From Pseudomonadota bacterium (GTDB lineage: Bacteria > UBA10199 > 2-02-FULL-44-16 > JBDRGF01): a DNA stretch of 21,692 bases. A program made the position numbers and the translations under genes. The stretch lies in contig JBDRGF010000081.1 of NCBI GenBank assembly GCA_043818055.1, forward strand, positions 1 to 21,692, read 5' to 3'. The notes under the pieces were generated by a model. That model was not told the origin of the DNA. It was given only the letters and a program-made list of their open reading frames with translations, and made no database searches. Position 1 is the stretch's first letter. Each line of letters begins with the position of its first letter. Positions 1,370 through 20,850 of this stretch are shown piece after piece.

Positions 1370-2248
1370 TTAGGAGATGACTCTGTTATTTTCTTTTCGA
1401 ATTTCTTTTTCTTTCTCTCTGAGTTGCTTATCCACTTCTTTTTGGCGAGATGCGATCAGCCTTCTTTGCTCAATGATCTGCTGTTGCTGGAAGCGGCCAT
1501 TATCGATCTGACTTCTGGCTTCAACTGCAAACTTCTGAGCCTGATGCGAGAGTTGATTACGGTTTGTTAAAAGCTTCTCTTCGCTCTGTCTTGCATTTAT
1601 CTGATTTTGCTGAAATCGATTACCCTGATCTTGTACCGCAAGAGCTTGCTGATCTACAAGCTGTCGATCCGGTTTCTGAATATTTTGAATTTCGTTAAAC
1701 TGCTCCGGCTGTATATTAGTTCCGAATCTAGACCCTGAAATAGCCTGTGCTAAGGCAATCTGAGCACGTTTCATGTAGATACCGACATTTTCGCGCATCT
1801 TTCTTAATTTATTCTTCGCATTCTCAATTCCAACTCTCCACCAATGACGTAGGTTTTTTTCAAAATAGTATTTTTTCTGTGCAAGCGACTCGCGTGCAAT
1901 TTTTAAGCTTTCAGACTGTTTTTCCAGCTGAACCTTTTGCAGTCCAAGCTGCTTGCTATTACCTTCGATTTGATTTCTCAAAGAAGCAAGTTCCAGCTCT
2001 TTTTGCCTGTGAGCTGCAGGAATTGCTTGTTGTAAATTATATTTTGCGGAATTTAATTTCTGAGCGTTTTCTCTTCCGGTATGTTTTAACTGCTTCTTGG
2101 CAGCCTCTAACTGTTGTTTCTCCCTCCGAAGCACATATAGGCGCTGCTTCTTCTGCTCTTCCTTGGCGCGTTTTTCACGCTCCTTGGCCTCACGCCTTTG
2201 GTCTGCAACGCGTCTATCTAATTCGGCCCTTGTTAATGGGGGTGCCAT
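1370..2248 (-). CDS. Orphan Q/K/E/R-rich coiled-coil protein, 292 aa
   Basis: Long ORF with GAGGAG RBS, helical heptad-like composition, dedicated upstream promoter-like motif; convergent with amrS. Confidence 0.75.
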   Translation of the reverse strand: MAPPLTRAELDRRVADQRREAKEREKRAKEEQKKQRLYVLRREKQQLEAAKKQLKHTGRENAQKLNSAKYNLQQAIPAAHRQKELELASLRNQIEGNSKQLGLQKVQLEKQSESLKIARESLAQKKYYFEKNLRHWWRVGIENAKNKLRKMRENVGIYMKRAQIALAQAISGSRFGTNIQPEQFNEIQNIQKPDRQLVDQQALAVQDQGNRFQQNQINARQSEEKLLTNRNQLSHQAQKFAVEARSQIDNGRFQQQQIIEQRRLIASRQKEVDKQLREKEKEIRKENNRVIS

Positions 2249-2273
2249 AAATTACAATTCTCCTCACTATTAT

Positions 2274-2300
2274 TATCGGCTATAGATACCCTGAAGTTGC
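2274..2300 (-). promoter_or_regulatory. Putative alternative-sigma (sigma-28-like) promoter, site 1
   Basis: Minus strand GCAACT-N14-GCCGATA(A), 25 nt upstream of ATG 2248. Confidence 0.7.
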
Positions 2301-2413
2301 GTTTTATTACAATATTTTTTTAAGCAATTTCAAATGGTTACAATACAAACCTAATTCGACACAATCGATGCAACATACCGTAAAATAAAGTGTTTTCACT
2401 TATAGTATACAGC

Positions 2414-3478
2414 TTATAGCTGAATTTCCAGCATCCTATCCAGTGCCAGTTTGGCATCTTTTGCTGTAAGATCGGGGACTTGGATCTCATTTACCTTGCC
2501 GATCTCATCCAGCGTCCATGTTAAATCATCCAAACCAACTCTAAACATATTAGCACATAATGATCTGGCCAGTGGAACGACCCGTTTTGAGGGATTATCT
2601 CTCGCCAGCCTTGAGACAAAGCTCACCTCAGTTCCAACTATGATCGTCTCACCCGATTTGGCCTCTTCGACATATTTTTTTATAAATGCGGTTGAGCCGG
2701 AGGCATCCGAGATATCTACGACATCTTCATTCGATTCCGGATGAACAATCACTTTGCAGCCCGGATATCGTTTTCTTGCATCCTTCACATGATCTGTCGT
2801 GAAAAATGTATGGACGTGACAAAAACCTTTCCAGAGGATGAGCTTCGCGCGCTTCAATTCCGCAGCACTCACTCCGCCATTTTCCTCTTGCGGATCCCAG
2901 AGGGCTATCTCATCCTTTGATATTCCCATCGACTTAGCGGTATTGCGCCCCAGATTTTCGTCGGGAAAGAAAAAGATTTTTGATTTTTTGCCAAGGCCCC
3001 ATTCGAGAACTTTTTTCGCCGATGATGATGTGCAGGTCGCGCCACCATTTCTTCCGCAGAAAGATTTAAGCTCGGCTGAAGAATTTATATATGTGACAGG
3101 CGTCAGATCGTTTGCGATTCCCAATTTTTCAAGTTCAACCCACGCGGATTCTACCTGCTCGATATCCGCCAAATCCGCAAGAGGACATCCCGCAAGAGGA
3201 TCAGGAAGAAAGACCTTTTGATCGGGCTTTGCCAACACGCTCGCAACCTCAGCCATAAAACGCACACCACAGAAAACGATATATTTCGCCTTCCCATTTT
3301 CACTGCCCACCTTCGCAAGCTGATAGCTGTCCCCCACAGCATCGGCGAATTCGACGATCTCGTCCCTCTGATAGTAGTGGCTCAAAATGAAAAGCTCTTC
3401 GCCAAGTTTTTTCTTCACCTTGGCAATTCGTTTCTTCAAATCTTCCGGTGACATGTTTAAATATTTATCTGGTATCAT
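2414..3478 (-). CDS. nadA: Quinolinate synthase A
   Basis: HYYQRDE, GDSYQLA, FCGVRFMAE, GCPLAD, YINSSA, CTSS, FPDENLG, GFCHVH, VHPE, GTE, LCANM motifs; three [4Fe-4S] cysteines. Confidence 0.95.
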   Translation of the reverse strand: MIPDKYLNMSPEDLKKRIAKVKKKLGEELFILSHYYQRDEIVEFADAVGDSYQLAKVGSENGKAKYIVFCGVRFMAEVASVLAKPDQKVFLPDPLAGCPLADLADIEQVESAWVELEKLGIANDLTPVTYINSSAELKSFCGRNGGATCTSSSAKKVLEWGLGKKSKIFFFPDENLGRNTAKSMGISKDEIALWDPQEENGGVSAAELKRAKLILWKGFCHVHTFFTTDHVKDARKRYPGCKVIVHPESNEDVVDISDASGSTAFIKKYVEEAKSGETIIVGTEVSFVSRLARDNPSKRVVPLARSLCANMFRVGLDDLTWTLDEIGKVNEIQVPDLTAKDAKLALDRMLEIQL

Positions 3479-3499
3479 AAAAACTCCAAAACTCTTTTA

Positions 3500-3552
3500 C
3501 CCCCTCCAACTCCCCCCAGTTATTCAACGGGGCATGCCTTATCAAGGGGGAG
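3500..3552. repeat. REP-like palindrome with a nested hairpin insertion
   Basis: Removing 3515-3536 (CCCAGTTATTCAACGGGGCATG) restores a perfect CTCCCCCTT-ATC-AAGGGGGAG stem-loop preceded by CCCCCTCCAA. Confidence 0.65.
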
Positions 3553-3567
3553 CGTATCCACGGAGCG

Positions 3568-5463
3568 TCACTTTATCAGCTCGACAAACTCGCTCTCCGA
3601 AATTATCTCCACCTTTCCACCCTTCTCTTTCAGCCTTTTTGCCTTGTCGAGTTTGGAGCCCACACTTCCTTCGTCTCCTACCACTAGATAATCGACATCC
3701 TTCGTAACGGTTGAAGCCGACCTTCCGCCATGTTCCTCAACCCTTCTGATGGCATCCGATCTTGTCATAGCAGAGAGGCTTCCCGTGAAGAGGAATGTTT
3801 TGCCGAAAAACTTTCCCTCCCTTTGAACACCCTCCCCCTCAATCAACTTCACTTGTTTCAAAAGTTTGTCGATCAATGCTGATTTTTTCTTCAAACCATT
3901 GACGATATCGGCAGCTATCACCTCTCCGAATCCGTGGATCGTTGAGAGTTCTTCAACTGTGAGGGAGCGAATTCGCTTCAATGTTTTGAACTGCAACAAT
4001 ATCTGTGATGCGCTCTTCCCGAGTTCACGGATGCCAAGCGAGCGCAAAAAGACATCGAGGGCTAATTCTCGTCTGGCCTCTATATTTGAAAGAAGTTTAC
4101 TGGAGAGAGTCTCACCCATTCTCTCAAGCCGCATTAGTTCATCCTCCGTGAGAGAGTAAAATTCATCTGCGTCCGTCACAAGGCCCGTCGTGTAGAGTTG
4201 TTCCACCAGCTTGTCGCCAAAGCCATCACACTCTATCGTCTGGATGAAGTGTAACAGCTCACCCACCTTGCTCTTCACGCAATTATTCGAATTTTTGCAG
4301 TAGAGAAAATCATCCCGCTCTTCGACATCTCCACCGCAGGATGGACAACGCTTAGGAATCACAACCTTGCCGCTTCCTGTCTCCACAACCTCTTCGAGAT
4401 GCGGGATGACGCCCCCACGGCGCATCATCACCACCTTCGAGTTTGGCGTCGCGCCTATTTTTTTGAGCCAGCCGATGTTGTGAAGAGAGGATCGTTTTAC
4501 TATAGCCCCAGAAAGTTCTATCGGATCGACTATGCCAATAGGTGTGATGAGGCCGCTTCTTGAGACACTCCATTCAATCTCCCTCAAAGTCGTCACACCC
4601 GACTCGCCCTGAAATTTATACGCTATCGCATAGCGCGGGTGATGAGCGGTATTGCCAAGCCGCTTTTGCTCGGAGATAAGATCGGCCTTGAAAACAATAC
4701 CATCAGTCTCGAAATCGTAATCGGAACGTTCTTTAAAAAAAGTATCACAGACTTCTTCTATTTTTCCGCGATCAACAACTTGTTTGTTTTCTATAATAAT
4801 GATTTTTTCTTTTTTAAGTTTTTCTAACAAATCATGAGTATATTCTGAATTGAGTCCCAACACATCATAAGCTAAGAATCTGAGCTCATATGCCGCGGTT
4901 TTTTTGGGATCCTTCTGTTTCACTGCACCTGCTGCAAGGTTTCTTGGGTTTGAAAATTTATCCTTAAACTTTTTAAAAACAGATAAGGGCATGTAGATCT
5001 CACCTCTAATCTCAACATCCTTAAAAGCTATTTTCTGAGGTATATCCCTTATCTCTTTGACGTTCTGAGTGATTTCTTCACCTACAACTCCGTTGCCGCG
5101 TGTCGAGGCTTGAGCAAGCCTTCCATTTTTATCGTATTTTAAAGAGACGGCCAGACCATCCACCTTGGGACTAGCTATTACGGCACCCTGAAACTTCGAT
5201 CTCCATTCGCGAAGGGTCTTGTCATCATAGCATTTGTCCAAGGATAACATCGGAACATCGTGTCTGATCTTCTTTCCCCTCTTTGTTAAGTCGCTCCCAA
5301 TTTCATCAAGCACTTTCGAATCAGGCTTGAGCTTTTTTAGCTCCTCAACTAGGCGATCGAAATCAAAATCGGATATTTCCGGTTTGTGTTTTTCGAAATA
5401 TAGTTTATTGTGATGCGAAATCACCTTTTCAAGTTCGGCGATGCGCATTTGATTCTCAGTCAT
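3568..5463 (-). CDS. ligA: NAD-dependent DNA ligase
   Basis: Domain Ia (HNKLYF..PEISD..FD), PMLSL, KVDG adenylation motif, STRGNG, EIRGE, NPRN, DGIVFK, AIAYKF, C4 zinc finger, HhH repeats, C-terminal BRCT; GAGGGA RBS. Confidence 0.95.
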   Translation of the reverse strand: MTENQMRIAELEKVISHHNKLYFEKHKPEISDFDFDRLVEELKKLKPDSKVLDEIGSDLTKRGKKIRHDVPMLSLDKCYDDKTLREWRSKFQGAVIASPKVDGLAVSLKYDKNGRLAQASTRGNGVVGEEITQNVKEIRDIPQKIAFKDVEIRGEIYMPLSVFKKFKDKFSNPRNLAAGAVKQKDPKKTAAYELRFLAYDVLGLNSEYTHDLLEKLKKEKIIIIENKQVVDRGKIEEVCDTFFKERSDYDFETDGIVFKADLISEQKRLGNTAHHPRYAIAYKFQGESGVTTLREIEWSVSRSGLITPIGIVDPIELSGAIVKRSSLHNIGWLKKIGATPNSKVVMMRRGGVIPHLEEVVETGSGKVVIPKRCPSCGGDVEERDDFLYCKNSNNCVKSKVGELLHFIQTIECDGFGDKLVEQLYTTGLVTDADEFYSLTEDELMRLERMGETLSSKLLSNIEARRELALDVFLRSLGIRELGKSASQILLQFKTLKRIRSLTVEELSTIHGFGEVIAADIVNGLKKKSALIDKLLKQVKLIEGEGVQREGKFFGKTFLFTGSLSAMTRSDAIRRVEEHGGRSASTVTKDVDYLVVGDEGSVGSKLDKAKRLKEKGGKVEIISESEFVELIK

Positions 5464-5573
5464 GATCGTCCCTCAACATTTTTGCTTTTCATTCAGACTT
5501 TCAACTGATATTTAGACCGATAGAAATTAAAAAGCAAGATATGAGAAGTCAACCTATCTTACCAGGAGAAACG

Positions 5574-8132
5574 ATGAGTTTTTCAAAATTCACACTAAAG
5601 AATGGCATGCAGGTAGTCCTCGAAGAGGATCATTCCTCCCCCGTAGTCTCTTTAAATGTTGTTATAAGAGCCGGCAGCGCGATGGAAGAGACTCGTGAGT
5701 GGGGAATCGCGCATGTGATTGAACATATGTTGTTTAAGGGGACTCCCACCAGGGGGGTTGGCACCATAGCCCGCGAAGTTGAGGCGGCTGGCGGCGAGAT
5801 CAACGCATATACATCGATCGATCACACGCTCTATTACATCAACATGGCATCCCAGTTTGCAAAGAAAGGCCTCAGTATCCTCTCCGACACAGTTAAAAAT
5901 CCCCTCTTCGATCAGGGGGAGCTAGACAGAGAAAAAGAGGTGATAATAGAGGAGATCAGGAGATCTAAAGACCTTCCCTCCTCTCGTGTGAGCGAGAATC
6001 TCTTCAAGCTCGCCTTCGGCACGCATCCCTTTGGACATCCGGTTATCGGAACTGAAAGACATGTAAGATCTTTCAAAAGAAAGGATCTCATTTCATTTTT
6101 CAAAAAGTGGTACACGCCGCAATTTATGAGCATAGTTATAGTTGGGGATTTTAACACGAAGCAGATGTTGCAGCTTCTGGAACGAGAATTCAGAACTCTT
6201 ACAAAAAAAGCTGCTTCCCCCGAGCCCCACATAATGGTGCCGCCGCACAGAAAGATCAAAATTCATACTGAATCGTCGAATATACAGAACACGCACATGA
6301 CGCTCGGCTATCACATTCCCGAAATTCGCCATGAGGATGTTCCTGCCCTCGATATCCTCTCCTTCATTCTTGGGGGTAGCGATTCATCCCGCCTCGAACA
6401 GGAGATAAAGGAGAAGAGGCAACTGGTGCATCAGATCTCATCTGGGACATACACGCCAAGATTCTGCGGACAGTTTATGGTGAGCGCGGTGCTCAGGGAT
6501 GCCGAAACGCAGAAGGTGATTCAGGCGATAGGTGATGAGATATCAAGAATTTCAACTCAAGGGATATCACAATCTGAGCTCTCTCGTGCAAAGCTGAATT
6601 TACAAGCAAGTCAGATATACGACAAGGAGACCGTCGGCGGCCAAGCCTCTAAACTAGCTTATTTCCTGGCGACAACAGGAAGTGCGGACTTTGAGCGAGA
6701 CTTTTTTCAAAGACTACATTCGGTGACGGATGGGGATGTGAGAAGTGTTTGCCAAAAATATCTACAGCCGAAAAATTCCGCCATATCGATACTGACTCCG
6801 AATGGTTCTCGCTGGAATAAGGCGAAGGCCACACTCAACAGAACTCTTGCCAGATCGTACACACCCCCTAAAAGTTCTTCTGTACAAAGTGCAGATACAA
6901 AACCCGAAGTGATCAGACTCAAAAACGGCATGACCCTCGTCTGCAAGGAGATACACAAACTGCCAATCGTATCTCTTGGAGTATTTGGCAAAGGGGGTTT
7001 GAGATTTGAAAACGCTCACAACAACGGTATCAGCATGCTGACAGCAAGGGCACTTACAAAAGGGACTAAGAATTTAAGCGCGATGGATATCGCACAGAAG
7101 TCAGAGATGATCGCGGGAAGCATAGATGGAATAGCGGGCAGAAACTCGATCGGCATCAAATGTGAATTCCTCTCATCCTTTTTGAATGATGGATTCGACC
7201 TTTTCGCGGATATAGTTGCAAACCCATCCTTTGCCGAAGATGAGGTGGAAAAAGAGAAGGCTATGCTTTTGCAGGAAATTAAAGATCATAACGATATGCT
7301 CCACTCAAAGGCGTTCGACGCCGCCCTTAAAAATCTCTTTCCGGATCACCCTTACGGGCTGCCTGTAATAGGAAAAAAGAAGAGCGTCACATCATTAACG
7401 CCTGCCTCCCTGAAAAAGTTCTTCTTCAATTCGATCAGAAAGAGGGATTTGGTCATCGTAGCGGTCGGCGACATAACTTCACACAGCATTGAAGATCTTA
7501 TCGAGGAAAAATTAAAAGGGATCCCATCGGGTCATATCGTGACTCCGAAAATTCCGGTCGAGCCTCCCCTCACAGGGATAAAGCTTGTCGAAGAGGAGGT
7601 CGATGAGAAAGAACAAGCGCATATGGTAATCGCCTTTCCGGGCACGACGATGTTCAGCGCTGACCGTTTCCCTCTGACAGTATTGAACAGCGTGCTGACC
7701 GGTCAGGGTGGAAAACTCTTTCAAACTTTAAGGGATAAAATGGGGCTCGCCTACTCGATATTTTCAACGACAATCGAGGGAGTCGATGCCGGCCTTTTTG
7801 CGATCTACATCGGGACAGAACCTGCAAAACTTGAGAAGGCAAAGTCAGGAATCCTCAATGAATTGAAACTCCTTCTTAAAAACGGTGTCACTAAAACAGA
7901 GGTCGCCAGAGCCAAACAATATATCGCGGGCACATATTCGCTCGACCTGCAAAAACAGAGCGGCCTCGCCACGAGATACGCGATGAGTCAGCTCTATGAA
8001 CTTGGAGTGGAAAACGTAAAAGATTATCCCAAAAAGATCATGGCAGTAAAATCAGCCGACATCAACGCAGTGATCGAAAAATACATCAACCTCGATTCGT
8101 ATGTCATGTCGATTGTAAAACCCGGCAACTAA
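5574..8132 (+). CDS. M16-family zinc peptidase (pitrilysin/insulinase type, two fused halves)
   Basis: HxxEH (HVIEH) plus NAYTS and EKEVIIEE in the N-half; C-half lacks the zinc motif but has LRDKMGLAY. AGGAG RBS supports ATG 5574 over 5541. Confidence 0.92.
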   Translation: MSFSKFTLKNGMQVVLEEDHSSPVVSLNVVIRAGSAMEETREWGIAHVIEHMLFKGTPTRGVGTIAREVEAAGGEINAYTSIDHTLYYINMASQFAKKGLSILSDTVKNPLFDQGELDREKEVIIEEIRRSKDLPSSRVSENLFKLAFGTHPFGHPVIGTERHVRSFKRKDLISFFKKWYTPQFMSIVIVGDFNTKQMLQLLEREFRTLTKKAASPEPHIMVPPHRKIKIHTESSNIQNTHMTLGYHIPEIRHEDVPALDILSFILGGSDSSRLEQEIKEKRQLVHQISSGTYTPRFCGQFMVSAVLRDAETQKVIQAIGDEISRISTQGISQSELSRAKLNLQASQIYDKETVGGQASKLAYFLATTGSADFERDFFQRLHSVTDGDVRSVCQKYLQPKNSAISILTPNGSRWNKAKATLNRTLARSYTPPKSSSVQSADTKPEVIRLKNGMTLVCKEIHKLPIVSLGVFGKGGLRFENAHNNGISMLTARALTKGTKNLSAMDIAQKSEMIAGSIDGIAGRNSIGIKCEFLSSFLNDGFDLFADIVANPSFAEDEVEKEKAMLLQEIKDHNDMLHSKAFDAALKNLFPDHPYGLPVIGKKKSVTSLTPASLKKFFFNSIRKRDLVIVAVGDITSHSIEDLIEEKLKGIPSGHIVTPKIPVEPPLTGIKLVEEEVDEKEQAHMVIAFPGTTMFSADRFPLTVLNSVLTGQGGKLFQTLRDKMGLAYSIFSTTIEGVDAGLFAIYIGTEPAKLEKAKSGILNELKLLLKNGVTKTEVARAKQYIAGTYSLDLQKQSGLATRYAMSQLYELGVENVKDYPKKIMAVKSADINAVIEKYINLDSYVMSIVKPGN

Positions 8133-8135
8133 AGT

Positions 8136-8151
8136 TGGCACCAAACTTGCT
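8136..8151 (+). promoter_or_regulatory. Sigma-54 (-24/-12) consensus site between convergent genes
   Basis: TGGCAC-CAAAC-TTGCT, exact GG-N10-GC spacing. Confidence 0.5.
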
Positions 8152-8846
8152 TACCTTTTCCCAACACCGGGTGTAGGGGGTACACCCGGTGTTGATTTTG
8201 GCTGGTCATTCCAGCCGTTCAACGGGCATTCACCACACTTGGGATTTTTTGGTCGGCAGAAGTTCTTGCCGACTTCTACAAGCTGGGCATGATATTCGTT
8301 GAAGAGGGTGACATCCTCTGAAAGATTGTCCATGAAATATTCCTGAAGCTCGTAATAATCCGCAGCCTCATCGCACATGTTGTGGCGCAAAAGGATTCGC
8401 TTTGTATACGCATCAATAACAAATGTCGGTTTTTCCAGCGCATAGAGCAGGATGGAATCGACTGTCTCTGGCCCAATCCCGGAGACAGAGAGAAGTTCCT
8501 CTCTCAACGATGAGAGAGATCTCTGTTTCATAGCTTCAACATCGCCATCATACTCGCCAATATAATAGTTTAGAAAATTTTTGAGTCTCTTCGTCTTAAC
8601 ATTAAAAAAGCCGGCCGGTTTGATCAGTTCAGCGAGTCGATCCAATGGCAAGTCCAACATCATTTTAGGATACAAAACCGCAGCGCTCTTCAGATTATCG
8701 ATCGCCTTTTCGACATTCTTCCAGCTCGTATTCTGCGTGAGGATCGCCCCTACCATCACTTCAAACGGAGAATCGCCGGGCCACCAGTGTCTCGGGCCGA
8801 AACGCTGTAGCATCAGATCAAAGGCCTGTTTGAGAATGGGATTCAT
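8151..8846 (-). CDS. HhH-GPD superfamily / endonuclease III-related DNA repair protein
   Basis: HWWPGDSPFEVMVGAILTQNTSWKNVEKA, PAGFFNVK, HhH LLSVSGIGPETVDSILLYA, VIDAY, partial FCL motif CRPKNPKCGECPL; GGTGAGG RBS supports ATG 8846. Confidence 0.88.
   Translation of the reverse strand: MNPILKQAFDLMLQRFGPRHWWPGDSPFEVMVGAILTQNTSWKNVEKAIDNLKSAAVLYPKMMLDLPLDRLAELIKPAGFFNVKTKRLKNFLNYYIGEYDGDVEAMKQRSLSSLREELLSVSGIGPETVDSILLYALEKPTFVIDAYTKRILLRHNMCDEAADYYELQEYFMDNLSEDVTLFNEYHAQLVEVGKNFCRPKNPKCGECPLNGWNDQPKSTPGVPPTPGVGKR
8162..8194. repeat. Perfect 14-bp inverted repeat, possible bidirectional terminator or REP-like insert
   Basis: CAACACCGGGTGTA-GGGGG-TACACCCGGTGTTG inside the 3' end of the HhH-GPD gene, encoding STPGVPPTPGVG. 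Confidence 0.8.
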
Positions 8847-8859
8847 CGTAAAAACCTCA

Positions 8860-8925
8860 CCCCCATCCGCCCTGCGCCATGTCATGCGACATGGCAAGGG
8901 CACCTTCCCCCATTCAGGTGGAAGG
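8860..8925. repeat. REP/RIME-like double hairpin with nested 20-bp palindrome
   Basis: CCCCCATCCGCCCT..GGGCACCTTCCCCC-ATTCA-GGTGGAAGG scaffold with GCCATGTC-ATGC-GACATGGC (8876-8895) in the first loop. Confidence 0.65.
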
Positions 8926-8999
8926 GCAAGATTGTTGAGTATTTCACTACATGCCACATGCGCTTTTCTGAAATTGTGCAATATAAGATTATAATTTGA

Positions 9000-9248: not shown

Positions 9249-9277
9249 TTTTTCCTCCAGTGTTGATTATGAAAATC

Positions 9278-10854: not shown

Positions 10855-10880
10855 TGTTATTCCATCTATAATCGCAGGTC

Positions 10881-12986: not shown

Positions 12987-12990
12987 GCTA

Positions 12991-14331
12991 TCACACAGAC
13001 GAAGCAACTGCTGCGATCGTCGCAGCCCCTATTCCGGAGCCATCGTGTGCCTGAACCAGCTTGATCCTTTTGGCCTTATTCCCATGCAGTTCAACAAACG
13101 ACGAGAGAATCCTCTCTCTGAACTTTGGATATTTCTCGAAGAGCGTGCCGTCGATGGCTATGGTATGCGATTTTGAAATCTTCGGATCCATCCACATGAC
13201 AACAGCCGATATAGCAGCAGCACAAATCCCCGCTGCACGCGTCGATACCAGCCTGCACACCCTCTTCAGACATTTTCTTTCAAACAGGGTGCTGTTGATA
13301 ATTCCAATCCCCTCAAGATAGCTAACAATTCCGGATAATCCGCTTGAGCTGTCAGCCTCGATCAGGGACATATGCCTTGTCGAAAAATCACCTTCGGAAA
13401 AAATAGCGTTTTCCTTTGCAAATAAGAGCTTCGAGGCGATCATATCTGTCAGGACCAGACGGGTCAGCTCACCCAGATACATCCCTGCGATCATCTTCTC
13501 CATCAGCTGCTTCTTTGGATTGTTCGTCGCTTGATCTAGCTTTTTGTCGAATGAGTTCATCGTGAGCTTGTTAAAATTTCCCCACTCGATATTGATTATC
13601 ATTCCTTTGCCGGCCTTGCGCCGTTCGGATTCAGACAACTTGGCGATTTTATCAACCCTCTCGGTGTAACAGGCGTTGGTGCCGGTCCCAAAGATGACTC
13701 CGATGTCACAATTTGGATCCTTGTACGATCTCGTCGCCAGCGTTCCGACCGTGTCATTTATCAGTGCAACTATTTCGATATTATTTAAGCCATACCTCTT
13801 GAGCGACTTTGAGAGTAGCTTGACGACATCCTCCCCGACAACTCCGCTAGCTGAAAAACCCTTAGTCCAGTTGATCAGGATGCCGGACGAGATGCTTCTC
13901 TGTTTTAAAGGAAACGAAAAAGTAAATCCAAGCCCCCTCTTCTCCGAAAAACCTATTCCATTTTTTAATACAAACTTTTGCACAGCTTTCGCAATGAAAT
14001 TAAAAAACTGTGTGGACGTGCCGTGCATGACAGCCTTTGGAATTACAAATTTTCCGACATGCTCCTCCTTAATTCCTCCCCTTCCATCGAATTTGACCTC
14101 GAGTATCCTGAAATTCGTCCCGCCGAGATCGAGCGCCAGAAATTTTCCCTTTTCATCTCCCTTCGGCCTGTTGACAAAGGATGGCAGCATCTTGAGCGAA
14201 CTCTTCCCGCCCGACAACCCTTTCTTCATCTCATCATGAAAGGCAGCAATAATCGAATTCATCCCCTTTTTTGTTAGTTCGAAAGAAGCTCCGATCTCTT
14301 GAAAATAGATTTCTATCTCTTTATTGTTCAC
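12991..14331 (-). CDS. Eukaryote-type hexokinase (Hexokinase_1/Hexokinase_2 domains)
   Basis: LKMLPSFV, LALDLGGTNFR, LGFTFSFP, WTKGF, ALINDTVGTL, GVIFGTGTNACY, INIEWGNF, EKMIAGMYLGE, IDGTLFEKYP, DGSGIGAA; GTG 14331 preceded by GGGGG (ATG 14352 is an alternative). Confidence 0.95.
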   Translation of the reverse strand: MNNKEIEIYFQEIGASFELTKKGMNSIIAAFHDEMKKGLSGGKSSLKMLPSFVNRPKGDEKGKFLALDLGGTNFRILEVKFDGRGGIKEEHVGKFVIPKAVMHGTSTQFFNFIAKAVQKFVLKNGIGFSEKRGLGFTFSFPLKQRSISSGILINWTKGFSASGVVGEDVVKLLSKSLKRYGLNNIEIVALINDTVGTLATRSYKDPNCDIGVIFGTGTNACYTERVDKIAKLSESERRKAGKGMIINIEWGNFNKLTMNSFDKKLDQATNNPKKQLMEKMIAGMYLGELTRLVLTDMIASKLLFAKENAIFSEGDFSTRHMSLIEADSSSGLSGIVSYLEGIGIINSTLFERKCLKRVCRLVSTRAAGICAAAISAVVMWMDPKISKSHTIAIDGTLFEKYPKFRERILSSFVELHGNKAKRIKLVQAHDGSGIGAATIAAVASSV

Positions 14332-14377
14332 AATACCCCCGTAGTGCCTCATTATTCGATATATGCATTTGACTTAT

Positions 14378-14403
14378 GTAGGGGCGGCCCCCCGTGGCCG
14401 CCC
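14378..14403 (+). repeat. GTAG-family REP element
   Basis: GTAG tetranucleotide followed by GGGCGGCC-CCCCGT-GGCCGCCC hairpin. Confidence 0.75.
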
Positions 14404-14445
14404 GAATTAGAGCAACCAGAGTCTCAAAGAAAGGTTACCAACCTA

Positions 14446-14859
14446 CTAAAAAAATTTTGCTACAACAGACGATATCCACTCTTTAATTTGTGGTCCACAT
14501 ATTCTAATAGGAATTATCATCAACAAAATTATTATGATAGTTAATCCAATCATCCAGAAATAACGCTTTTCTTGGACCCTTCGATCAATTTCTTTTTCAG
14601 CAGCGTCCTTAACCTCCCCTCCCTCCTTTTCTAAGAGTCTTTCCAGCTCTTCCTTTTTTACCCCCTTCATATTATTGCTATTCAGTAAAAACCTTCTCCT
14701 ACTTTCATCTAACGCGCTTAAGCGCCTATATTTACTATCATCTGGAAGAGATGGATCATTGGAAATTTCCGTTTGTAATTCCTCGAACTCCTTGAGATTT
14801 TTGCATTTCTTTATTTGAACCCAATATTGACTACGATTATTATCATTATCATTATCCAT
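14446..14859 (-). CDS. AT-rich hypothetical protein with C-terminal transmembrane helix, 137 aa
   Basis: GGAG RBS; charged N-terminal region then YFWMIGLTIIIILLMIIPI. Confidence 0.6.
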   Translation of the reverse strand: MDNDNDNNRSQYWVQIKKCKNLKEFEELQTEISNDPSLPDDSKYRRLSALDESRRRFLLNSNNMKGVKKEELERLLEKEGGEVKDAAEKEIDRRVQEKRYFWMIGLTIIIILLMIIPIRICGPQIKEWISSVVAKFF

Positions 14860-14981
14860 ATTTACTCCATTAGAGTTTAACGATAATTACAACTATATAG
14901 ATATTTTGAAATTTTACAATGCTTAAGCCACATGCCTTAATATGATTTACCAAAGACAATGAAATGATTTTTTCATTTTTT

Positions 14982-15056
14982 TGTCATTCCCGCGAAGTAG
15001 GAAATCCAGCATAAATTCAACCCAATCTGGATCCCGCATCGGGGTGCGGGATGACA
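14982..15056. repeat. GTCATTCCCGCG...GGGATGAC-type REP doublet (dRS3/RPE-like)
   Basis: TGTCATTCCCGCGAAGTAGGAAATCCAG-spacer-CTGGATCCCGCATCGGGGTGCGGGATGACA with terminal inverted TGTCAT/ATGACA and inner ATCCAG/CTGGAT. Confidence 0.75.
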
Positions 15057-15124
15057 TTGTAAATCGACAAAGTTGCCTTAAAATGAGTTATTTAGTCTTT
15101 CAGAGGGATACAATTTTTGCTGCC

Positions 15125-15153
15125 TTGCCCAAGCATTTCTAAAGTTGTATAAA
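15125..15153 (+). promoter_or_regulatory. Putative sigma-70 promoter of the alpha/beta hydrolase, possibly leaderless
   Basis: TTGCCC-N17-TATAAA-N7-ATG; no Shine-Dalgarno. Confidence 0.55.
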
Positions 15154-15160
15154 TACAGAT

Positions 15161-15946
15161 ATGTCATACTTTAATCATGAAAACTTGAATATCTATTACG
15201 AAGAGATTGGGAGTGGAGAGCCTCTACTTCTCATCAACGGCCTCGGCGGTGATACACGCGGCTGGGCTCCTTTGATTGAACATCTGAAAAACAAATTTCA
15301 CGTGATCAGCTACGATATGCGCTGTGCAGGGCAAAGCGATAAGCCGAAGGAGCAGATCACCATTCATCAACTCGCCGAAGAGGCGCTCGCTCTGATTCAA
15401 CACTTGGGATTAAAGAGGGTTCATGTGCTGGCTCACTCTATGGGTGGGATGATTGCAATGGATCTTGCTCTGAATCATCCCGATCTCATCGACAAACTTT
15501 TTTTGATCTCCACTGCGCCATCTCTAAATCGGCCATATGCTGTATCCGAAAAAATTTTAACGCTCTTTCATCGTATCGATGTCTCGCCTGAACTTCTGGC
15601 CGAGGTTTATGAGACTGTTTTTGGAACAAACTTTAAAAAGAAAATCTCTATTGATGATTACATAAAGGCGCGCATGAAAGACACAAACCCACAGCCGACT
15701 CAAGCGTATTTAAACCAGCTCAGGGCTACAGAGTTGTTTGACATCTATGATTCAGTCGCGAAAATTTTTCAGCCTGCCTGCATCGTTGTTGGCGATCAGG
15801 ATAAAATTATTCCGCCTCAAAACTCAAAATGGCTGAGCGAAAAAATCCCCAACTCAAAGCTCTTAGTCCTGAAAGGTATTGGCCACATGCTTCCAATTGA
15901 GGCCACAGATGAACTTTCCAAAATCGTGGAGGAGATATGTCTATAA
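15161..15946 (+). CDS. Alpha/beta-fold hydrolase (enol-lactonase/esterase-like)
   Basis: GEPLLLINGLG, YDMRCAGQS, nucleophile elbow AHSMGG, GDQDKIIP, GIGH. Confidence 0.9.
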   Translation: MSYFNHENLNIYYEEIGSGEPLLLINGLGGDTRGWAPLIEHLKNKFHVISYDMRCAGQSDKPKEQITIHQLAEEALALIQHLGLKRVHVLAHSMGGMIAMDLALNHPDLIDKLFLISTAPSLNRPYAVSEKILTLFHRIDVSPELLAEVYETVFGTNFKKKISIDDYIKARMKDTNPQPTQAYLNQLRATELFDIYDSVAKIFQPACIVVGDQDKIIPPQNSKWLSEKIPNSKLLVLKGIGHMLPIEATDELSKIVEEICL

Positions 15947-17190
15947 GAAGAATACAACATCCATTATTGATTGGACATCCGAATCCAACTGTATTTCCTG
16001 TCGAGACATCTCTCGGAGATGGAATAACTCCGATGGACCTGAGCGGGGATCACTATGATCTCAACAATGTCGCCTATGTCATCGAAGGACCGATTGCAGC
16101 GAACATACCGATAAGGCCTGAAACGCACAAAATCAGATCAATACCGATTCCTCTCTCATCCAAGCAATCACTGATTCTGCGTGAACATGAGCCCTACCTA
16201 AAACGTTACGATCTCTTCTCCAATTTGAATTACAGCCCTGTTGAAGGATCATTCTACTTTGGCGCACCTCTTCATGAAAATGACGAAGGCCTGACAAGCG
16301 TTAGAGTCAGCAGAAGTGCAATTGGCAGTGATGATCACAGCGTGGTCTTCGACACAGAGATAGGTATAAGAGATATCATTGAATGCTACAGCCTAAATCA
16401 AATACCATGTGGCGAAAGATTTCCCAGTATCTATTCGGCTGATGGTCAGCGCAGGGCTCATTACATCCACACCCCCTTACTACGACTTTTTGATCCAGCG
16501 ACAGCCCCATCGATAGGACTCTTCCTGCTCTTAGAAGGCACAATTAAAAAGCCTCAACCGACAAACGAACGGATGGTCAGTTCAAAGTTACATCTGGCGC
16601 CAGACTGGAAGATGTTCAAAAAGGAAGATGGTTATACGGCAATCATCAGCGCATTGCGCTATCACCCCTATCTTCTCCCTGATTATTTTGATCCGGTTAG
16701 AACCAATCTTGCCGTCCTCTCGAAAGGAAAGGAATTGGATCTGGCTGGATCAGTCAATCGCTTTGGTTTTTCGCAGTTGTGCGAACTCGATGCTACATTG
16801 ATACTTAGCTGTAATAAAGAGGGGGCGTTGACGCTATATTCAAAACATCCCCCTGATGGAGGTAGAAGAATTATAGTGCGGTCAAAGAGCTGGACAATCG
16901 ATTTCCAGAAGGAGCACAACTGCTGTCCTATCGATGAAAGCTCAACAATCACATTTGCTTTTTTGGGGAAAAATTCTACCCCATTCGTCGGACAAATTAC
17001 AATAGAGCTGCTCTTTCCCAGAATGCAACAACAGACATCGGAAGATGATAAGATGAAGCAGCATCCCTGGGTAATCGAGACAGAGGATGTTCTGTTTGGA
17101 AAGAAAAACCGCGCATTGTTACTACAGCTCGCCTCTTCCCAACACCTTTATGGCTATGATAAAAATGTGCCACCGGCTTTGATTTTTTGA
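15937..17190 (+). CDS. Orphan hypothetical protein, 417 aa
   Basis: Long ORF with GGAGGAG RBS inside the upstream gene and a 10-nt overlap; no recognisable motif. Confidence 0.7.
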   Translation: MSIRRIQHPLLIGHPNPTVFPVETSLGDGITPMDLSGDHYDLNNVAYVIEGPIAANIPIRPETHKIRSIPIPLSSKQSLILREHEPYLKRYDLFSNLNYSPVEGSFYFGAPLHENDEGLTSVRVSRSAIGSDDHSVVFDTEIGIRDIIECYSLNQIPCGERFPSIYSADGQRRAHYIHTPLLRLFDPATAPSIGLFLLLEGTIKKPQPTNERMVSSKLHLAPDWKMFKKEDGYTAIISALRYHPYLLPDYFDPVRTNLAVLSKGKELDLAGSVNRFGFSQLCELDATLILSCNKEGALTLYSKHPPDGGRRIIVRSKSWTIDFQKEHNCCPIDESSTITFAFLGKNSTPFVGQITIELLFPRMQQQTSEDDKMKQHPWVIETEDVLFGKKNRALLLQLASSQHLYGYDKNVPPALIF

Positions 17191-17215
17191 TGATTAAGCC
17201 CCATGATCATGAAGC

Positions 17216-18049
17216 TCAGATTACTATGTTATTAGAGGGAAAGGAAAATGCCAGGCGACCCATGATTGATCTTAATCCCGCATCGCTAGCCTTAAGAAGT
17301 CGTATGCATCTTAGACCAAAGTCATCAACTTTAGCATCATCTTGTGTCGTAGGAATCCCCCTACTATTGCCATCAAGCGTAACAGATTCCCCTTCAGCTC
17401 GAATCCAACCCGCACCTAAAACTTCTATTCGTTTTTCAATAATTCCCTCACACAAAAGATTCATATGCTCAACAACTATTAACGGTAATGACCATCGATA
17501 GGAAATATGAATGCGTGTACTTTGATCAGACAAAATGCGTAAAACTGCAAATTTCTCCAATTGCCGTTCACCATCCACAACCGACCATCTCAGTTGATCA
17601 AGATTTTCAAGTGGCCCAACACCCTCTTTCCCCTCATATTGGTAGACATCGACCCCATTATTCACAATATCAGCACTCACAAGATCGGCAAGAGAGGCAA
17701 CTAACACTGAATCCGATTCTTCCTGTCTGACTTCAGACGCATTATTAAGATTCACAGCAACATCTCGCAACTCAGGCGTTAACTCTATATCAACAGATCT
17801 TGTCAACAGGTGACCAAGTAAACGACAGTCAGAAGCCCTATCTCCACCGACATGCCCCCCTATAATTCCTAAATCAGTTTCAGCTCTTTGGGAAAAACTA
17901 TCAAGAGTTCTAAAGAGGCCATCCCCCTCTTGCAAAAAAGTGTGGAGCGCCCGGGGTGTAGATACAGAGGGTTCGACACCTATTGTCTGCATGACCCTCA
18001 TGATGTTAGATGTGTCTGTCTGTGCCAATCGACTAATAGCTTGTTTCAT
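17216..18049 (-). CDS. Orphan protein, 277 aa, possible C-terminal Janus/Ocnus (PHP14)-like domain
   Basis: AAGGAG RBS and shared promoter motif support expression; domain call is tentative (K..H..LGAGWI..G-x-S pattern). Confidence 0.65.
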   Translation of the reverse strand: MKQAISRLAQTDTSNIMRVMQTIGVEPSVSTPRALHTFLQEGDGLFRTLDSFSQRAETDLGIIGGHVGGDRASDCRLLGHLLTRSVDIELTPELRDVAVNLNNASEVRQEESDSVLVASLADLVSADIVNNGVDVYQYEGKEGVGPLENLDQLRWSVVDGERQLEKFAVLRILSDQSTRIHISYRWSLPLIVVEHMNLLCEGIIEKRIEVLGAGWIRAEGESVTLDGNSRGIPTTQDDAKVDDFGLRCIRLLKASDAGLRSIMGRLAFSFPSNNIVI

Positions 18050-18078
18050 ATCTCATTGATCTCCTTCCCTGTTGTTAC

Positions 18079-18104
18079 TATCGGCAGATCCTCAAAAAAG
18101 TTGC
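18079..18104 (-). promoter_or_regulatory. Putative alternative-sigma (sigma-28-like) promoter, site 2
   Basis: Minus strand GCAACT-N13-GCCGATA(G), 29 nt upstream of ATG 18049. Confidence 0.7.
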
Positions 18105-18148
18105 CTGGCAAAAAGGCTTCCGGATCCCCAATGATGATTCGAAAATTC

Positions 18149-20788
18149 CTATTCGGCTGCATCAAATTTAGTTACTAATTTTTCCAGAAGTTTGACCAGC
18201 CTTCGTAGAAAAACAGTATCTACATAACGATGTTTCACTGCAAGACCGAGCGGCATTTTGCCCTTCCCATATCCATTTACAGGTTTAACATGCCAATGAT
18301 TTGTTCCGCGTTCGACTGAAAGCCCTATTTTGTTCAACTGGGATGTTATTGTTTCGATAGTCATGTCCAGAAGCGCTGCCCCCCTCTCATCTGTTAATTC
18401 ATCTATAATTCCCCTGACAGCATCTCTGTGTTTTTCATTCATAATATAAAACTCAAATCTTAACAGTCCAAAATCTGAACTCACAGCATCGGGTGAAAAA
18501 ATATCAGCTTCAGATGGGGCACTTTCTTTTTTTCGACGTTTTTTAATATCTACAGGTAGCTGTGAACTTTCGCTGTCCCTTTGTGGATTTTCTCCAGTTT
18601 TTTTTCTTAACCGGTTTTGCGCTGCATTCACCAATACAGGATTATAGCCAAGTTCATCAGCCCATCCATACAACCTCAATGCCCCCGCTACATCCCCCTT
18701 CTCCTCAAATATTCTCCCAAGAGAAAAGGCACTATGCTCAGCACCATCCCCACCAAAAGAAAAGCTTAGCATATAGTATAATCCTGCAAGCTCTTTATTT
18801 CCATTATCCTGATGGGAATCCGCAACAAGCCCTGCAAGATTTGAATTATGAGGATCCAACTTCAGGGCTCTTTCATATCGTTCCACAGCAATATCGAATC
18901 GCTTCTGACGATAGTTGATATCTCCGAGCCCCTTCCAGTAATCGGGTTCATCTCCATAATTGTTCAGCAGCTCTCCGAACAACGCCTGAGACTCCGTGAA
19001 TTTACCCAGCTCTAAAAGTGAGCGCGCCTTCCACAACTGCAAATCGGCACAAACATCTGCAGCCCTTTCCGTAATATCAACTATTTTGGAAAATCGTCCC
19101 GCCTCAAAGAGATGGTAGATAAGGTGATGCAGAAGATTATGATCCCTTTCGACCAATCTGAGAACATCCCCGGATATTTTTCCTTCGGTCTCAAATATTT
19201 CACGCGCAGCTAATATAGAGAGCTCTCCCCGATAATCATCCCTTCCCGGTTCAAGTTCGTCGGCCTTGCTCATTGCAGAGATAGCTTCCATGAACCTGCC
19301 TTTTTCTTTGAGATAGTTCGAATAATTTGCAAATACAAGATGGTGAGATTTAGGATTGAGGCTATCGATCAGTTCCATGCCCCGAACCATACATCTTTTC
19401 TGTTCCAGACAATCGCCTTCTTCAATAGCAATTCCCAAAAGCTCACCTATAGTCAGTACCCCTTCGATCTCAGGTGAAACTCCCATTTTTATACTCGTAT
19501 CAAATTTACGTCTTGCCCCCCTCCTGTCATTTTGACTCAGCAATATTCTTCCATGAAGCAGATAAGAATAAGCGAGAGCACGAATATCCGGCGCATATGC
19601 TAAATATTCTGAATTGGAAGCAATAGCGGCTATATCTTTTGAATTTTCCACCCATTTAAGCATCCTTAGAACGAGTTCAATATGTTCATCATGCTTATTT
19701 GCATCTATAAGTGTCTGAATCGATCGCACAATGATATCAATAAAAGCAAAATACGAAATGATCGCAGTGGGTATATTTTTTTTAGCATCATTCCTGAGAT
19801 TATCAATTCCACCTGAAATCGCTTTCAAAACCTGAATCATGGCATTTGGATCCGTTGAATTTAGCTGTTCATAACTCATATCTTTTATCTGCAATGCAAG
19901 CTGAGCAACATCATCGTTGTACGGGTCCAGATAAGGTTTCATTGAATGCAGATTGCATCTGAGTTGTATGTCTATTCTTTCAGAAGGATCATCCCTCAAA
20001 AGATGCGTTTCCTGGCTTTCTACGCCTTCAGAATAAACAGGATCTTCATGCATCTTCAAAATTTTACATTTATCTAACATCTCAATAGCCCATTTTTTTC
20101 TCTCCTCTTTTTTATCCTCCAAAGAATCCCATGCATGAACGCCTAGAAATATCGCCATCGAAAAAAAATCCTTCGCTTCTTTTTCCTCCTCAAAAAGCTC
20201 TTCGTGGATAAGCATTTTCATATCACTCATGTGCGGTGGAAAATGACCGACTTTCTGCAACTGCTTCATGCGCCCAATCACCTCATCAACAACTTCTGAT
20301 GCTTTTACAAAAGCATCATACGCCTTCTCAATGCTTTTCAAATCATCCACCTTGTACAATTTAAATAAGGAGACACAATATTTTCTCCATGACTGAAATG
20401 AATTTGCCAATCCCGGCCAATTCCCCATACTATTCATAGACCATAAGTCGAATTTTTTCTCATACAAATTCACAACAACCTGCCAATCGCCTTTGATATA
20501 TGCCCTATAAATTTTATTTAGAATGTTTCTTGTATTAACAGGCTTCTTTCCCTTCATTCCAACCATTAAAGTCGGTGAAGAGAAAAGGGAGTTAGTAAGA
20601 AGTCCAAATGTTCCCATCATCGCTAATTGTTCCATCCCTGCATACCCCAGATTCGCATTGAGCTCACCCACGGAAACGATTGTCTGAGTGCAAAATTTGC
20701 CAGCGGTATTAATCAAGGATTCACGCGCAACATTTGCAACATTCGACAAGTAAGATGTGGGATTTGCCATCTTTGAAAAAAGATTCAT
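18149..20788 (-). CDS. Large tetratricopeptide-repeat protein, 879 aa, with possible C-terminal HicA-like domain
   Basis: TPR units such as YWKGLGDINYRQKRFDIAVERYERALKLDPHN and FANYSNYLKEKGRFMEAISAMSKADELEP; GAGGAG RBS. Confidence 0.8.
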   Translation of the reverse strand: MNLFSKMANPTSYLSNVANVARESLINTAGKFCTQTIVSVGELNANLGYAGMEQLAMMGTFGLLTNSLFSSPTLMVGMKGKKPVNTRNILNKIYRAYIKGDWQVVVNLYEKKFDLWSMNSMGNWPGLANSFQSWRKYCVSLFKLYKVDDLKSIEKAYDAFVKASEVVDEVIGRMKQLQKVGHFPPHMSDMKMLIHEELFEEEKEAKDFFSMAIFLGVHAWDSLEDKKEERKKWAIEMLDKCKILKMHEDPVYSEGVESQETHLLRDDPSERIDIQLRCNLHSMKPYLDPYNDDVAQLALQIKDMSYEQLNSTDPNAMIQVLKAISGGIDNLRNDAKKNIPTAIISYFAFIDIIVRSIQTLIDANKHDEHIELVLRMLKWVENSKDIAAIASNSEYLAYAPDIRALAYSYLLHGRILLSQNDRRGARRKFDTSIKMGVSPEIEGVLTIGELLGIAIEEGDCLEQKRCMVRGMELIDSLNPKSHHLVFANYSNYLKEKGRFMEAISAMSKADELEPGRDDYRGELSILAAREIFETEGKISGDVLRLVERDHNLLHHLIYHLFEAGRFSKIVDITERAADVCADLQLWKARSLLELGKFTESQALFGELLNNYGDEPDYWKGLGDINYRQKRFDIAVERYERALKLDPHNSNLAGLVADSHQDNGNKELAGLYYMLSFSFGGDGAEHSAFSLGRIFEEKGDVAGALRLYGWADELGYNPVLVNAAQNRLRKKTGENPQRDSESSQLPVDIKKRRKKESAPSEADIFSPDAVSSDFGLLRFEFYIMNEKHRDAVRGIIDELTDERGAALLDMTIETITSQLNKIGLSVERGTNHWHVKPVNGYGKGKMPLGLAVKHRYVDTVFLRRLVKLLEKLVTKFDAAE

Positions 20789-20824
20789 TTTCTTATCTCC
20801 TCAAGTTAATTTTCTTTGTCTGAT

Positions 20825-20850
20825 TATCGTCTGATATCGATTTTAGTTGC
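20825..20850 (-). promoter_or_regulatory. Putative alternative-sigma (sigma-28-like) promoter, site 3
   Basis: Minus strand GCAACT-N13-GACGATA(A), 36 nt upstream of ATG 20788. Confidence 0.65.

Follow-up and report, generated by a model that had tools for sequence, protein, structure and literature searches.

What unites three genes of almost no traceable ancestry that each stand behind the same promoter-like sequence? The question is raised by a 21,692-nucleotide (nt) contig (C81) of a 2.93-Mb genome of the phylum UBA10199 (G000; 43% GC, 93.6% complete); 'the window' below means this whole stretch. A sequence-only reading of it had reported three minus-strand copies of a motif, GCAACT-N13/14-GMCGATA, and had proposed that a lineage-specific sigma factor of the sigma28 type co-expresses scattered orphan effectors. 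We propose that the three sites are probably part of a genome-wide promoter that is read by a FliA/WhiG-like sigma factor encoded in a type III secretion system (T3SS) cluster and that would switch on both the secretion machine and about a hundred genes, of which a large part is predicted to encode cargo. That the motif is a promoter and is read by this sigma factor we consider very likely; that a large share of its targets is type III cargo is a part that we favour with modest confidence.

Three promoter-like sites in the window

The sites and the genes that they precede are as follows.

2274..2300, minus strand: promoter-like site 1, GCAACT-N14-GCCGATA, 27.9 bits, 25 nt before the 292-aa gene
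1370..2248, minus strand: 292-aa Gln/Lys/Arg-rich orphan protein, no Pfam or NCBIfam match, no relative found
18079..18104, minus strand: promoter-like site 2, GCAACT-N13-GCCGATA, 23.6 bits, 29 nt before the 277-aa gene
17216..18049, minus strand: 277-aa near-orphan, candidate modular cargo protein with a conserved C-terminal domain
20825..20850, minus strand: promoter-like site 3, GCAACT-N13-GACGATA, 24.4 bits, 36 nt before the 879-aa gene
18149..20788, minus strand: 879-aa protein with tetratricopeptide repeats (TPRs) near residues 580–710 and a Ser/Asn/Thr-rich, acid-poor N-terminus, TPR matches only

The positions and spacers are exactly those first reported, and none of 100 dinucleotide shuffles of the window reached three matches (mean 0.01). 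The gap from the −10 box to the start codon is 25, 29 and 36 nt at sites 1, 2 and 3, and GAGGAG or GGAAGGAG precedes the ATG of each gene, in agreement with the reported placement 25–36 nt before starts with a strong ribosome-binding site (RBS). Site 2 lies within the 99-nt gap that follows the 879-aa TPR gene. No further site of at least 14 bits was found in the window.

The description of all three genes as orphans was checked by protein searches. A search of 5.8 billion proteins close to it in length returned nothing but the 292-aa protein itself. A large protein database search with the 277-aa protein returned the protein itself and one 29%-identical relative, and the 879-aa protein gave a TPR-level match only, in 1 of 92 relatives, the large protein databases lying outside that search. 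The 277-aa and 292-aa proteins, as well as the C-terminus of the 879-aa protein (a domain of about 110 aa), have no Pfam, NCBIfam or PDB family, and an Rfam scan of the window gave no match. Metatranscriptome contigs (run X2) cover 29 of 30 window bins about as evenly as DNA run X1, so that their coverage shows neither expression nor transcription starts; the end of one X2 contig falls at 18078, next to site 2, and a lone contig end carries no weight as evidence.

A genome-wide motif of the sigma28 kind

Across the genome, the strict pattern of the sequence-only reading occurs at 16 and 14 sites with spacers of 13 and 14 nt, at 3 sites each with spacers of 12 and 15 nt, and at none with any remaining spacer between 5 and 25. 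An iterated matrix, trained on this genome, converged on GCAAC(T/A)TT-N10/11-N(G/A)CCGATAAT and found 115 sites of at least 18 bits, compared with 1–6 when the two boxes were placed at each of eight wrong spacer pairs, a frequency above chance. The −10 matrix columns C, G, A/T and A stand at 0.95–0.99, and the −10 element of the sigma28 class, (G)CCGATAA, is present. GCAAC-N15/16-CCGAT peaks at 40 and 44 sites, compared with 2–11 at other spacers, which matches the 15–16-nt spacing of sigma28. A FliA-type −35 box was not detected: TAAA-N15-GCCGATA gives 3 sites, within the 1–9 of other spacers, and the −35 element here is GCAAC. The idea of a sigma28-type promoter with a different −35 element thus gains support from the whole genome.

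With gene calls made anew (2,582 genes, 89% coding), 121 of 126 sites are intergenic, and 97 sites have a start within 100 nt in the motif orientation, compared with 16 in the opposite one. The sites stand 20–60 nt before an RBS in a single orientation; the spacer varies freely and both boxes are kept. Two T3SS operons are headed by the motif (C90:675 and C90:2786). Taken together, these data suggest that the motif is a promoter family, a variant of the sigma28 kind, that would work like the HrpL regulon. By the features tested, the motif and its candidate sigma factor belong to neither the canonical FliA nor the HrpL family.

A candidate sigma factor inside a type III secretion cluster

The genome holds four sigma70 genes, encoding RpoD, an RpoH-like protein, one extracytoplasmic-function (ECF) sigma factor and one FliA/WhiG-like protein. 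The last of these, whose best family is TIGR02479 (138.6 bits, below the curated cut-off of 189.6), is encoded on C90 between sctJ and an SctI-like gene; genes for FliG-like, SctL, N, O, P and Q, FliO-like, and SctR, S and T proteins follow in a non-flagellar cluster, and sctU and sctV lie on other contigs. Both of the elements that had been predicted, a FliA/WhiG homologue with a divergent region 4.2 and T3SS export genes, are therefore present, the latter around the sigma gene itself.

In region 2.4/3.0 of FliA, residues R74, A78, D81, R84 and R91 are −10 contacts. The counterparts of E. coli FliA R74, D81, R84 and R91 (R123, D130, R133 and R140) are invariant in 23 sequences, and the counterpart of A78, A127, is kept in at least 90% of them and is Ser in this genome's protein. 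By contrast, the region 4.2 helix is changed, ESRVSQLH of E. coli FliA, or ESRVSQ(L/I)H for the FliA/WhiG family, being replaced by SKSW(T/V)SRLH throughout the aligned sequences. A kept −10 reader and a changed −35 helix are what the motif requires. Some families have GAAAC as a −35 variant; it gave no signal of covariation with region 4.2, the helix being identical in both. No flagellin was found in the 93.6% complete genome, and no FlgM, PF04316 being unmatched, although a divergent FlgM could be missed. A plasmid search for the sigma factor returned one 28% match, and the database labels on its relatives are automatic and read only 'FliA'.

A sigma54-like box, TGGCA-N7-TGCA, precedes the sigma gene in 54 of 62 loci, compared with 1 of 62 on the reversed strand, the pattern having been relaxed after stricter canonical forms found 2 of 30; the genome also carries an RpoN-box gene and 14 full activator domains. 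In the four myxobacterial loci checked, the box was found in none. Four loci (L058, L063, L064 and L075) lack the box and have an opposite-strand motif site about 220 nt upstream of the sigma gene; these and other loci often have GAAAC as the −35 element. Separately, a short element in which a good sigma54 box precedes one and the same hairpin-forming sequence recurs at eight places (window ~8135–8190; C31, C43 (twice), C53, C61, C82 and C91), a candidate small RNA or miniature element.

Genes led by the motif

To characterise the targets, we annotated the 103 genes that lie outside the window and whose start is no more than 200 nt from an intergenic site; of the other 23 sites, 3 are in the window, and the rest fall within genes, have no called start nearby, stand at the end of a contig or are a second site of the same gene. 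As controls, 130 first-of-unit genes were drawn at random from 476 eligible ones in the same regions. A Pfam match (E ≤ 1e-5) was obtained for 24 of the 103 motif-led genes and for 102 of the 130 controls (p = 1.4e-17), leaving 79 and 28, respectively, without one; the bias toward orphan genes that had been suspected from the window thus holds genome-wide. The matched targets include T3SS-flavoured FHA/YscD(-cytoplasmic) domains, a lytic transglycosylase, peptidases and a serpin. The earlier observation that the motif is absent before recognisable housekeeping genes is accurate for the window; it does not extend to the genome, in which these 24 genes, YidC among them, and the two T3SS operons are headed by it. 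Three pairs of motif-led paralogues were noticed, C66:4645-6768 and C165:31461-33584 (88% identical), C33:106825 and C80:138 (29%) and C39 and C46 (83%), and in all three each copy keeps its promoter; apart from these pairs, hardly any of the 103 targets is related to another.

A Ser/Pro/Thr/Asn-rich, acid-poor N-terminus is the composition of type III export signals. In 84 non-hydrophobic targets of at least 100 aa, the N-terminal share of S+P+T+N is 0.284, compared with 0.208 in 1,725 other proteins, and that of D+E is 0.062, compared with 0.120. The shift is confined to residues 2–30 and is not seen in protein interiors or in 18 controls without a Pfam match (S+P+T+N 0.218, D+E 0.103). A composition threshold was passed by 42 of the 84 targets and by 11% of the background. 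In the window, the N-terminus of the 879-aa protein lies at the 98th percentile for cargo-like composition and that of the 277-aa protein at the 89th. The proposal that the motif-led genes encode effectors thus finds support for part of the regulon, these two proteins included, and not for the 292-aa protein or for the targets with hydrophobic N-termini that are considered below.

The C-terminal domain of the 277-aa protein was matched in 1 of 92 relatives. In three sequences, K166, R171, H195, GAG, GNSxGxPT and DAGL are invariant, and the domain recurs on an unrelated N-terminus in genome G084, behind a motif-like GCAACT-N14-CACGATG. This is the layout of a candidate swappable catalytic domain. 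Evidence for the toxin or catalytic C-termini that had been suggested was not obtained: the domain is conserved and modular but has no family match; its likeness to the Janus/Ocnus fold (Atlas feature scores ≤0.77, TM ≤0.53, model pLDDT 0.43) lies under the tool's bar and is a weak lead.

Some further features were noted in passing. A 417-aa orphan with a Pro/His/Thr-rich N-terminus (window 15937-17190, plus strand) faces the 277-aa gene, has no motif site and overlaps the end of an alpha/beta hydrolase gene. A palindromic intergenic repeat at window ~14980-15055, before a 137-aa gene, looks by eye like a repetitive extragenic palindrome. Elsewhere in the genome, motif-led 330-aa basic proteins alternate with signal-peptide proteins of 1,540–1,670 aa, without Pfam matches, at C14:928-19989, and a 4124-aa open frame (L113:3813-16187, on C3) joins an apolipoprotein N-acyltransferase to RHS repeats, as a fusion or a misassembly.

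The sigma factor and the motif across phyla

The exact pattern was found in all 93 genomes of the phylum, which fall into one class, at 2–73 sites per genome and about 2,100 matches in total, compared with 12 for the reversed control. The sigma factor is present in 60 of 61 relatives, the one miss being 78% complete, and SctN adjoins it in all 49 relative loci with enough flank. Of 301 genomes sampled from the phylum to which a Myxococcales record belongs, 182 also have a homologue, a tally that includes an unpublished genome (G258) counted only there. Contrary to what had been assumed, the sigma factor is therefore not lineage-specific.

Sixteen such genomes were read in 20-kb stretches. In nine of them, large myxobacterial genomes of 9–13 Mb, the full set TPR-sigma-SctI-J-L-N-Q-R-S-T-U is clustered, with the motif at the head of the cluster in 9 of 9; a motif site was also found in 4 of 5 partial clusters and at 0 of 2 loci without T3SS neighbours. 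In 30 shorter loci, the motif follows the sigma gene within 400 nt in 12, compared with 0 on the other strand. The myxobacterial sigma gene sits inside the motif-led operon and, at 4 of 4 loci, has no sigma54-like box, which suggests positive feedback of the sigma factor on its own operon. In 45 further genomes, the median number of exact sites was 13 with the sigma factor (25 genomes) and 2 without it (20 genomes). Five genomes carry a distant sigma factor, and in three of them a site lies right after the sigma gene. One locus from a Terriglobales record labelled Acidobacteriota (L109) has the same sigma factor, motif and T3SS genes, which suggests that the module was transferred as a whole or that the contig was mis-binned.

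Exact sites in five myxobacterial genomes numbered 23, 16, 19, 13 and 6, compared with 3, 1, 2, 6 and 4 for the reversed control. Of these 77 sites, 51 were inspected: 40 are intergenic with a gene behind them, 9 lie inside genes and 2 have no gene. The 40 motif-led genes include 28 without a Pfam match. Among the others are an orthologous pair of peptidoglycan-binding amidases (L285 and L323), a peptidoglycan-binding GH19 protein (L314) and a thermolysin (L320), none of which has an evident hydrophobic signal, as well as an amylase-family enzyme (L308), an FHA/YscD protein, two nuclease/phosphatase lipoproteins, a sulfatase and an NmrA protein. Consistent with the composition found in UBA10199, myxobacterial target N-termini have more S+P+T+N (0.35 versus 0.24) and less D+E (0.058 versus 0.099) than 101 control genes from the same loci.

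The secretion machine

The genome encodes SctJ, L, N, Q, R, S, T, U and V together with TPR chaperones. Its core proteins are close to those of the cluster in the myxobacterial genome G196 (SctN 58% and SctV 53% identical), the content of which fits the description of MXAN_2434-2464 in PMC10433427; here and below, cited papers are drawn on for individual passages. From these likenesses, we infer that the machine is a Myxo-type needle-less T3SS (T3SS*). The three secretins of the genome belong to type II secretion, pilus-like and Tad clusters, and none lies within the T3SS cluster. The needle protein SctF was above cut-off in 0 of 93 phylum genomes and also in 0 of 14 control genomes, so that the sensitivity of this search is unproven. 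The Tad cluster (C20:1-5259 and C59:4398-13083) encodes the RcpA secretin, RcpC, TadE/G, TadA-C and Flp.

In Myxococcus xanthus, passages of four reviews (PMC10433427, PMC10849154, PMC12428579 and PMC11804543) describe T3SS* as driving prey lysis with local peptidoglycan degradation and restrict its co-occurrence with Tad to Cystobacterineae; none of the passages concerns a sigma factor or names a promoter for T3SS*. Its effectors are called unknown in review passages up to 2025 (PMC10433427 and PMC12428579). The 'Myxo' non-flagellar T3SS has also been argued to be a step between flagellum and injectisome (PMC3459982, in part). The pairing of Tad with a needle-less T3SS that is observed here lies outside Cystobacterineae, the group to which these review passages confine it.

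Cargo regulon or wider programme

Several observations weigh against a cargo regulon under the T3SS-cluster sigma factor. A hydrophobic, signal-peptide-like N-terminus is found in 19 of 106 targets and in 460 of 2185 background proteins, and is thus not depleted. Only 42 of the 84 non-hydrophobic targets pass the composition threshold, and both the composition score and the signal-peptide test, which misses Ala-rich signals (L280), are heuristics of our own. Housekeeping-like genes are motif-led, namely those for YidC, uridine kinase, a DEAD-box helicase and GGDEF and PilZ proteins. In the window, the 292-aa protein has a charged N-terminus at the 2nd percentile for cargo-like composition, and is probably co-regulated and not cargo. 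The exit route is a further difficulty, as there is no needle above cut-off and no secretin in the cluster; RcpC occurs in only 28 of 93 phylum genomes, so Tad cannot be a universal exit. Among the myxobacteria, site counts are near control in G196 (13 versus 6) and G290 (6 versus 4), and the 13 exact sites of G196 (9.0 Mb) include no peptidoglycan hydrolase. The match between sigma factor and sites is also imperfect: a search of G116, which has 31 exact sites, gave no close homologue of the sigma factor, G105 has the sigma factor and 0 exact sites, and the five genomes with a distant sigma factor have counts near their controls. Related genomes are, moreover, non-independent samples, and the sigma54 pattern was relaxed in the way described above.

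Many of these points would be expected if the sigma assignment were right and the regulon were a general life-stage programme, such as an attack or attachment phase, with the T3SS as one member and most orphans being cytoplasmic, Sec-exported or surface proteins and not type III cargo. The hydrophobic N-termini, the YidC, kinase, helicase, GGDEF and PilZ genes and the failure to find a needle or a cluster secretin all fit, and there is a precedent in Bdellovibrio bacteriovorus, in which FliA is reported, in passages of PMC3627812, to control two thirds of attack-phase promoters, many of them non-flagellar. What such a programme does not account for is an N-terminal shift that is limited to residues 2–30, is absent from the 18 Pfam-less controls and recurs in myxobacteria, or a sigma gene that stays within the T3SS cluster across phyla, and we judge it unlikely.

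A second alternative is that the motif is read by the RpoH-like sigma factor, an ECF sigma factor or a transcription factor acting with RpoD, the FliA-like protein having other targets. The −10 box does end in GATAAT, close to TATAAT, and G116 has many sites with no close sigma homologue found. However, CCGATA with this spacing is the sigma28 −10 element (PMC3627812, in part), only the FliA-like protein keeps the contacting region, and the site accompanies the sigma factor into Myxococcales and Terriglobales loci. Moreover, G116 is one of three site-rich genomes that seemed to be without the sigma factor, and the other two turned out to hold a split copy (G132) and a divergent copy (G100). A different reader of the motif is, in our view, improbable.

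In the reading that we prefer, namely a T3SS-cluster sigma factor that switches on the machine and its cargo, the conserved TGGCA-N7-TGCA box suggests that sigma54 holoenzyme with an enhancer-binding activator would transcribe the sigma gene. The sigma factor would then read CCGATAA through its FliA-conserved region 2.4/3.0 and GCAAC through its changed region 4.2 helix and, to judge from the positions of the sites, would drive the two T3SS operons and many single-gene units. Products with a Ser/Pro/Thr/Asn-rich, acid-poor N-terminus may leave through the needle-less T3SS on contact with prey or host, and the remaining targets would be co-regulated proteins that are exported by Sec, anchored by a lipid or cytoplasmic. 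The predation T3SS* of myxobacteria would go with the same sigma factor and motif and with a smaller regulon.

A probable intron and other mobile DNA at the proposed promoter

At 12 sites, the same antisense element starts with GTGCG exactly at the upstream edge of ACGCAAC, which contains the −35 box. The sites in G000 are C14:869, C14:7793, C18, C60 (both ends), C111, C125, C130, C156, C164, C165:39654 and C165:49702. A −10 box stands behind 12 of 12 element-bearing copies of ACGCAAC, compared with 18 of 148 others (p = 1.9e-9). Six 5′ ends and six 3′ ends recognised as RF00029 coincide with the ends of contigs in G000, and we infer that they join as one intron. A copy of about 815 nt in another family (G045, L198:1-817; 65% identical) has the same junction and runs from GTGCG to a domain V/VI-like end, with no open reading frame of more than 42 codons. 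A predicted exon-binding site 1 (EBS1) loop, GCGCAAC, copies the −35 box and pairs with the exon end GTTGCGT; two G000 copies carry AAGCAAC at that loop instead. The 5′ GTGCG, the domain V/VI-like end and the pairing of EBS1 with intron-binding site 1 (IBS1) indicate that the element is probably a group II intron family. Rfam gave no match in three intron-bearing loci, and the single intron-type reverse transcriptase in G000 belongs to another intron. The junction pattern was found in 2 of 93 genomes, a count that is too low because only 4 of the 12 known G000 sites were recovered with it. Seven bases are too few for the tie to the −10 box, and protein contact or an open complex may therefore add specificity. 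Most DNA matches from a search for further intron copies were a short hairpin repeat and not the intron.

Two ends resembling insertion sequences (IS) recur 9–12 nt upstream of motif sites, one of them being window 1-30. The IS-like ends lie at window 1-30, C16:15863, C17:152, C18:152, C20:31488, C131:28978, C165:48206, C30:19312, C56:10741, C126:137 and C154:135, and some of them lie nested, one within the other or within the intron. Mobile DNA accumulates before these promoters.

Given the 12 intron ends and the IS-like ends that other sites share within about 12 nt upstream, the motif might itself be a sequence at which a mobile element or a cassette system (an intron, an IS or an integron-like site) that carries the orphans ends or inserts, and no promoter at all. 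Yet most sites share no flank, the spacer is free while both boxes are kept, the site occupies fixed places in vertically inherited T3SS operons, and it stands 20–60 nt before an RBS in one orientation. We regard this possibility as very improbable. The intron instead reads as a parasite of the promoter site.

Comparison with known systems

In passages of PMC3627812, the Bdellovibrio FliA promoter is TTAAG-N16-CCGATA. The system described here resembles that regulon in its −10 box and spacing, in a sigma28-family factor placed over about a hundred promoters of many uncharacterised genes, and in belonging to a lineage of predatory type. It differs in that the −35 element is GCAAC, no flagellin or FlgM was found, the sigma gene lies in a non-flagellar T3SS cluster and the protein scores under the FliA/WhiG family cut-off. 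The likeness to the regulon that HrpL controls in Pseudomonas syringae (PMC3597554, in part) is one of organisation: an alternative sigma factor is linked to a T3SS, and its promoter is found at the genes for the machine as well as at dispersed effector genes, candidate ones in our case. HrpL, however, is an ECF sigma factor that reads another promoter and serves a complete, needle-bearing, plant-directed injectisome (PMC3597554), whereas a sigma28-family protein and a needle-less system are found here, and the HrpL promoter marks effectors, whereas secretion of the present targets is predicted from composition. In P. syringae, the hrp box has its own sequence and HrpL is under sigma54/HrpRS control. 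A sigma54 tier may stand above the sigma factor here, as judged from the sequence box.

Relative to T3SS* of M. xanthus, or the 'Myxo' non-flagellar T3SS (passages of PMC10433427, PMC3459982, PMC10849154 and PMC12428579), SctI, J, L, N, Q and RSTUV, TPR chaperones and a cluster without a secretin are shared; here the system spans a phylum of small genomes from uncultured bacteria, sctU and sctV lie on contigs apart from the cluster, and the regulon is several times the size. Among group II introns, those of class IIC and IIC-attC have terminators or attC sites as their targets. The intron at the −35 box resembles them in that it inserts next to a functional DNA signal that recurs and leaves genes intact, and differs in its target, the upstream border of the −35 box of an alternative sigma factor, in antisense. 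We found no description of this motif, sigma factor or regulon in a literature that leaves most subscription journals and supplements outside its coverage, and none of a group II intron targeting such a promoter, most subscription journals again lying outside.

Implications

A bolder extension of these findings, which we put forward as tentative and at slightly less than even confidence, is that GCAAC-N16/17-CGATAA is the hrp-box equivalent of the needle-less T3SS and lists T3SS* cargo, that members of UBA10199 are contact-dependent predators or parasites with 50–100 fast-evolving secreted proteins per 2–3-Mb genome, and that the intron homes to the promoter. If this is true, a motif scan would show what predatory myxobacteria export through T3SS*, namely peptidoglycan amidases, GH19 lysozymes, proteases and conserved unknowns; and the needle-less T3SS of the myxobacteria and of the whole of UBA10199 would have its own sigma28-derived sigma factor. 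The tie between the promoter and the T3SS* cluster yields a short list of effector candidates and a single regulator in a soil bacterium that is harmless and genetically tractable. It would also be a case in which the flagellar sigma family, with a rewired −35 helix, is re-used on a system that has been argued to stand between flagellum and injectisome (PMC3459982, in part). For UBA10199, a phylum without a cultured member, the motif would tag many candidate cargo proteins of the machine and is the first lifestyle handle of which we are aware.

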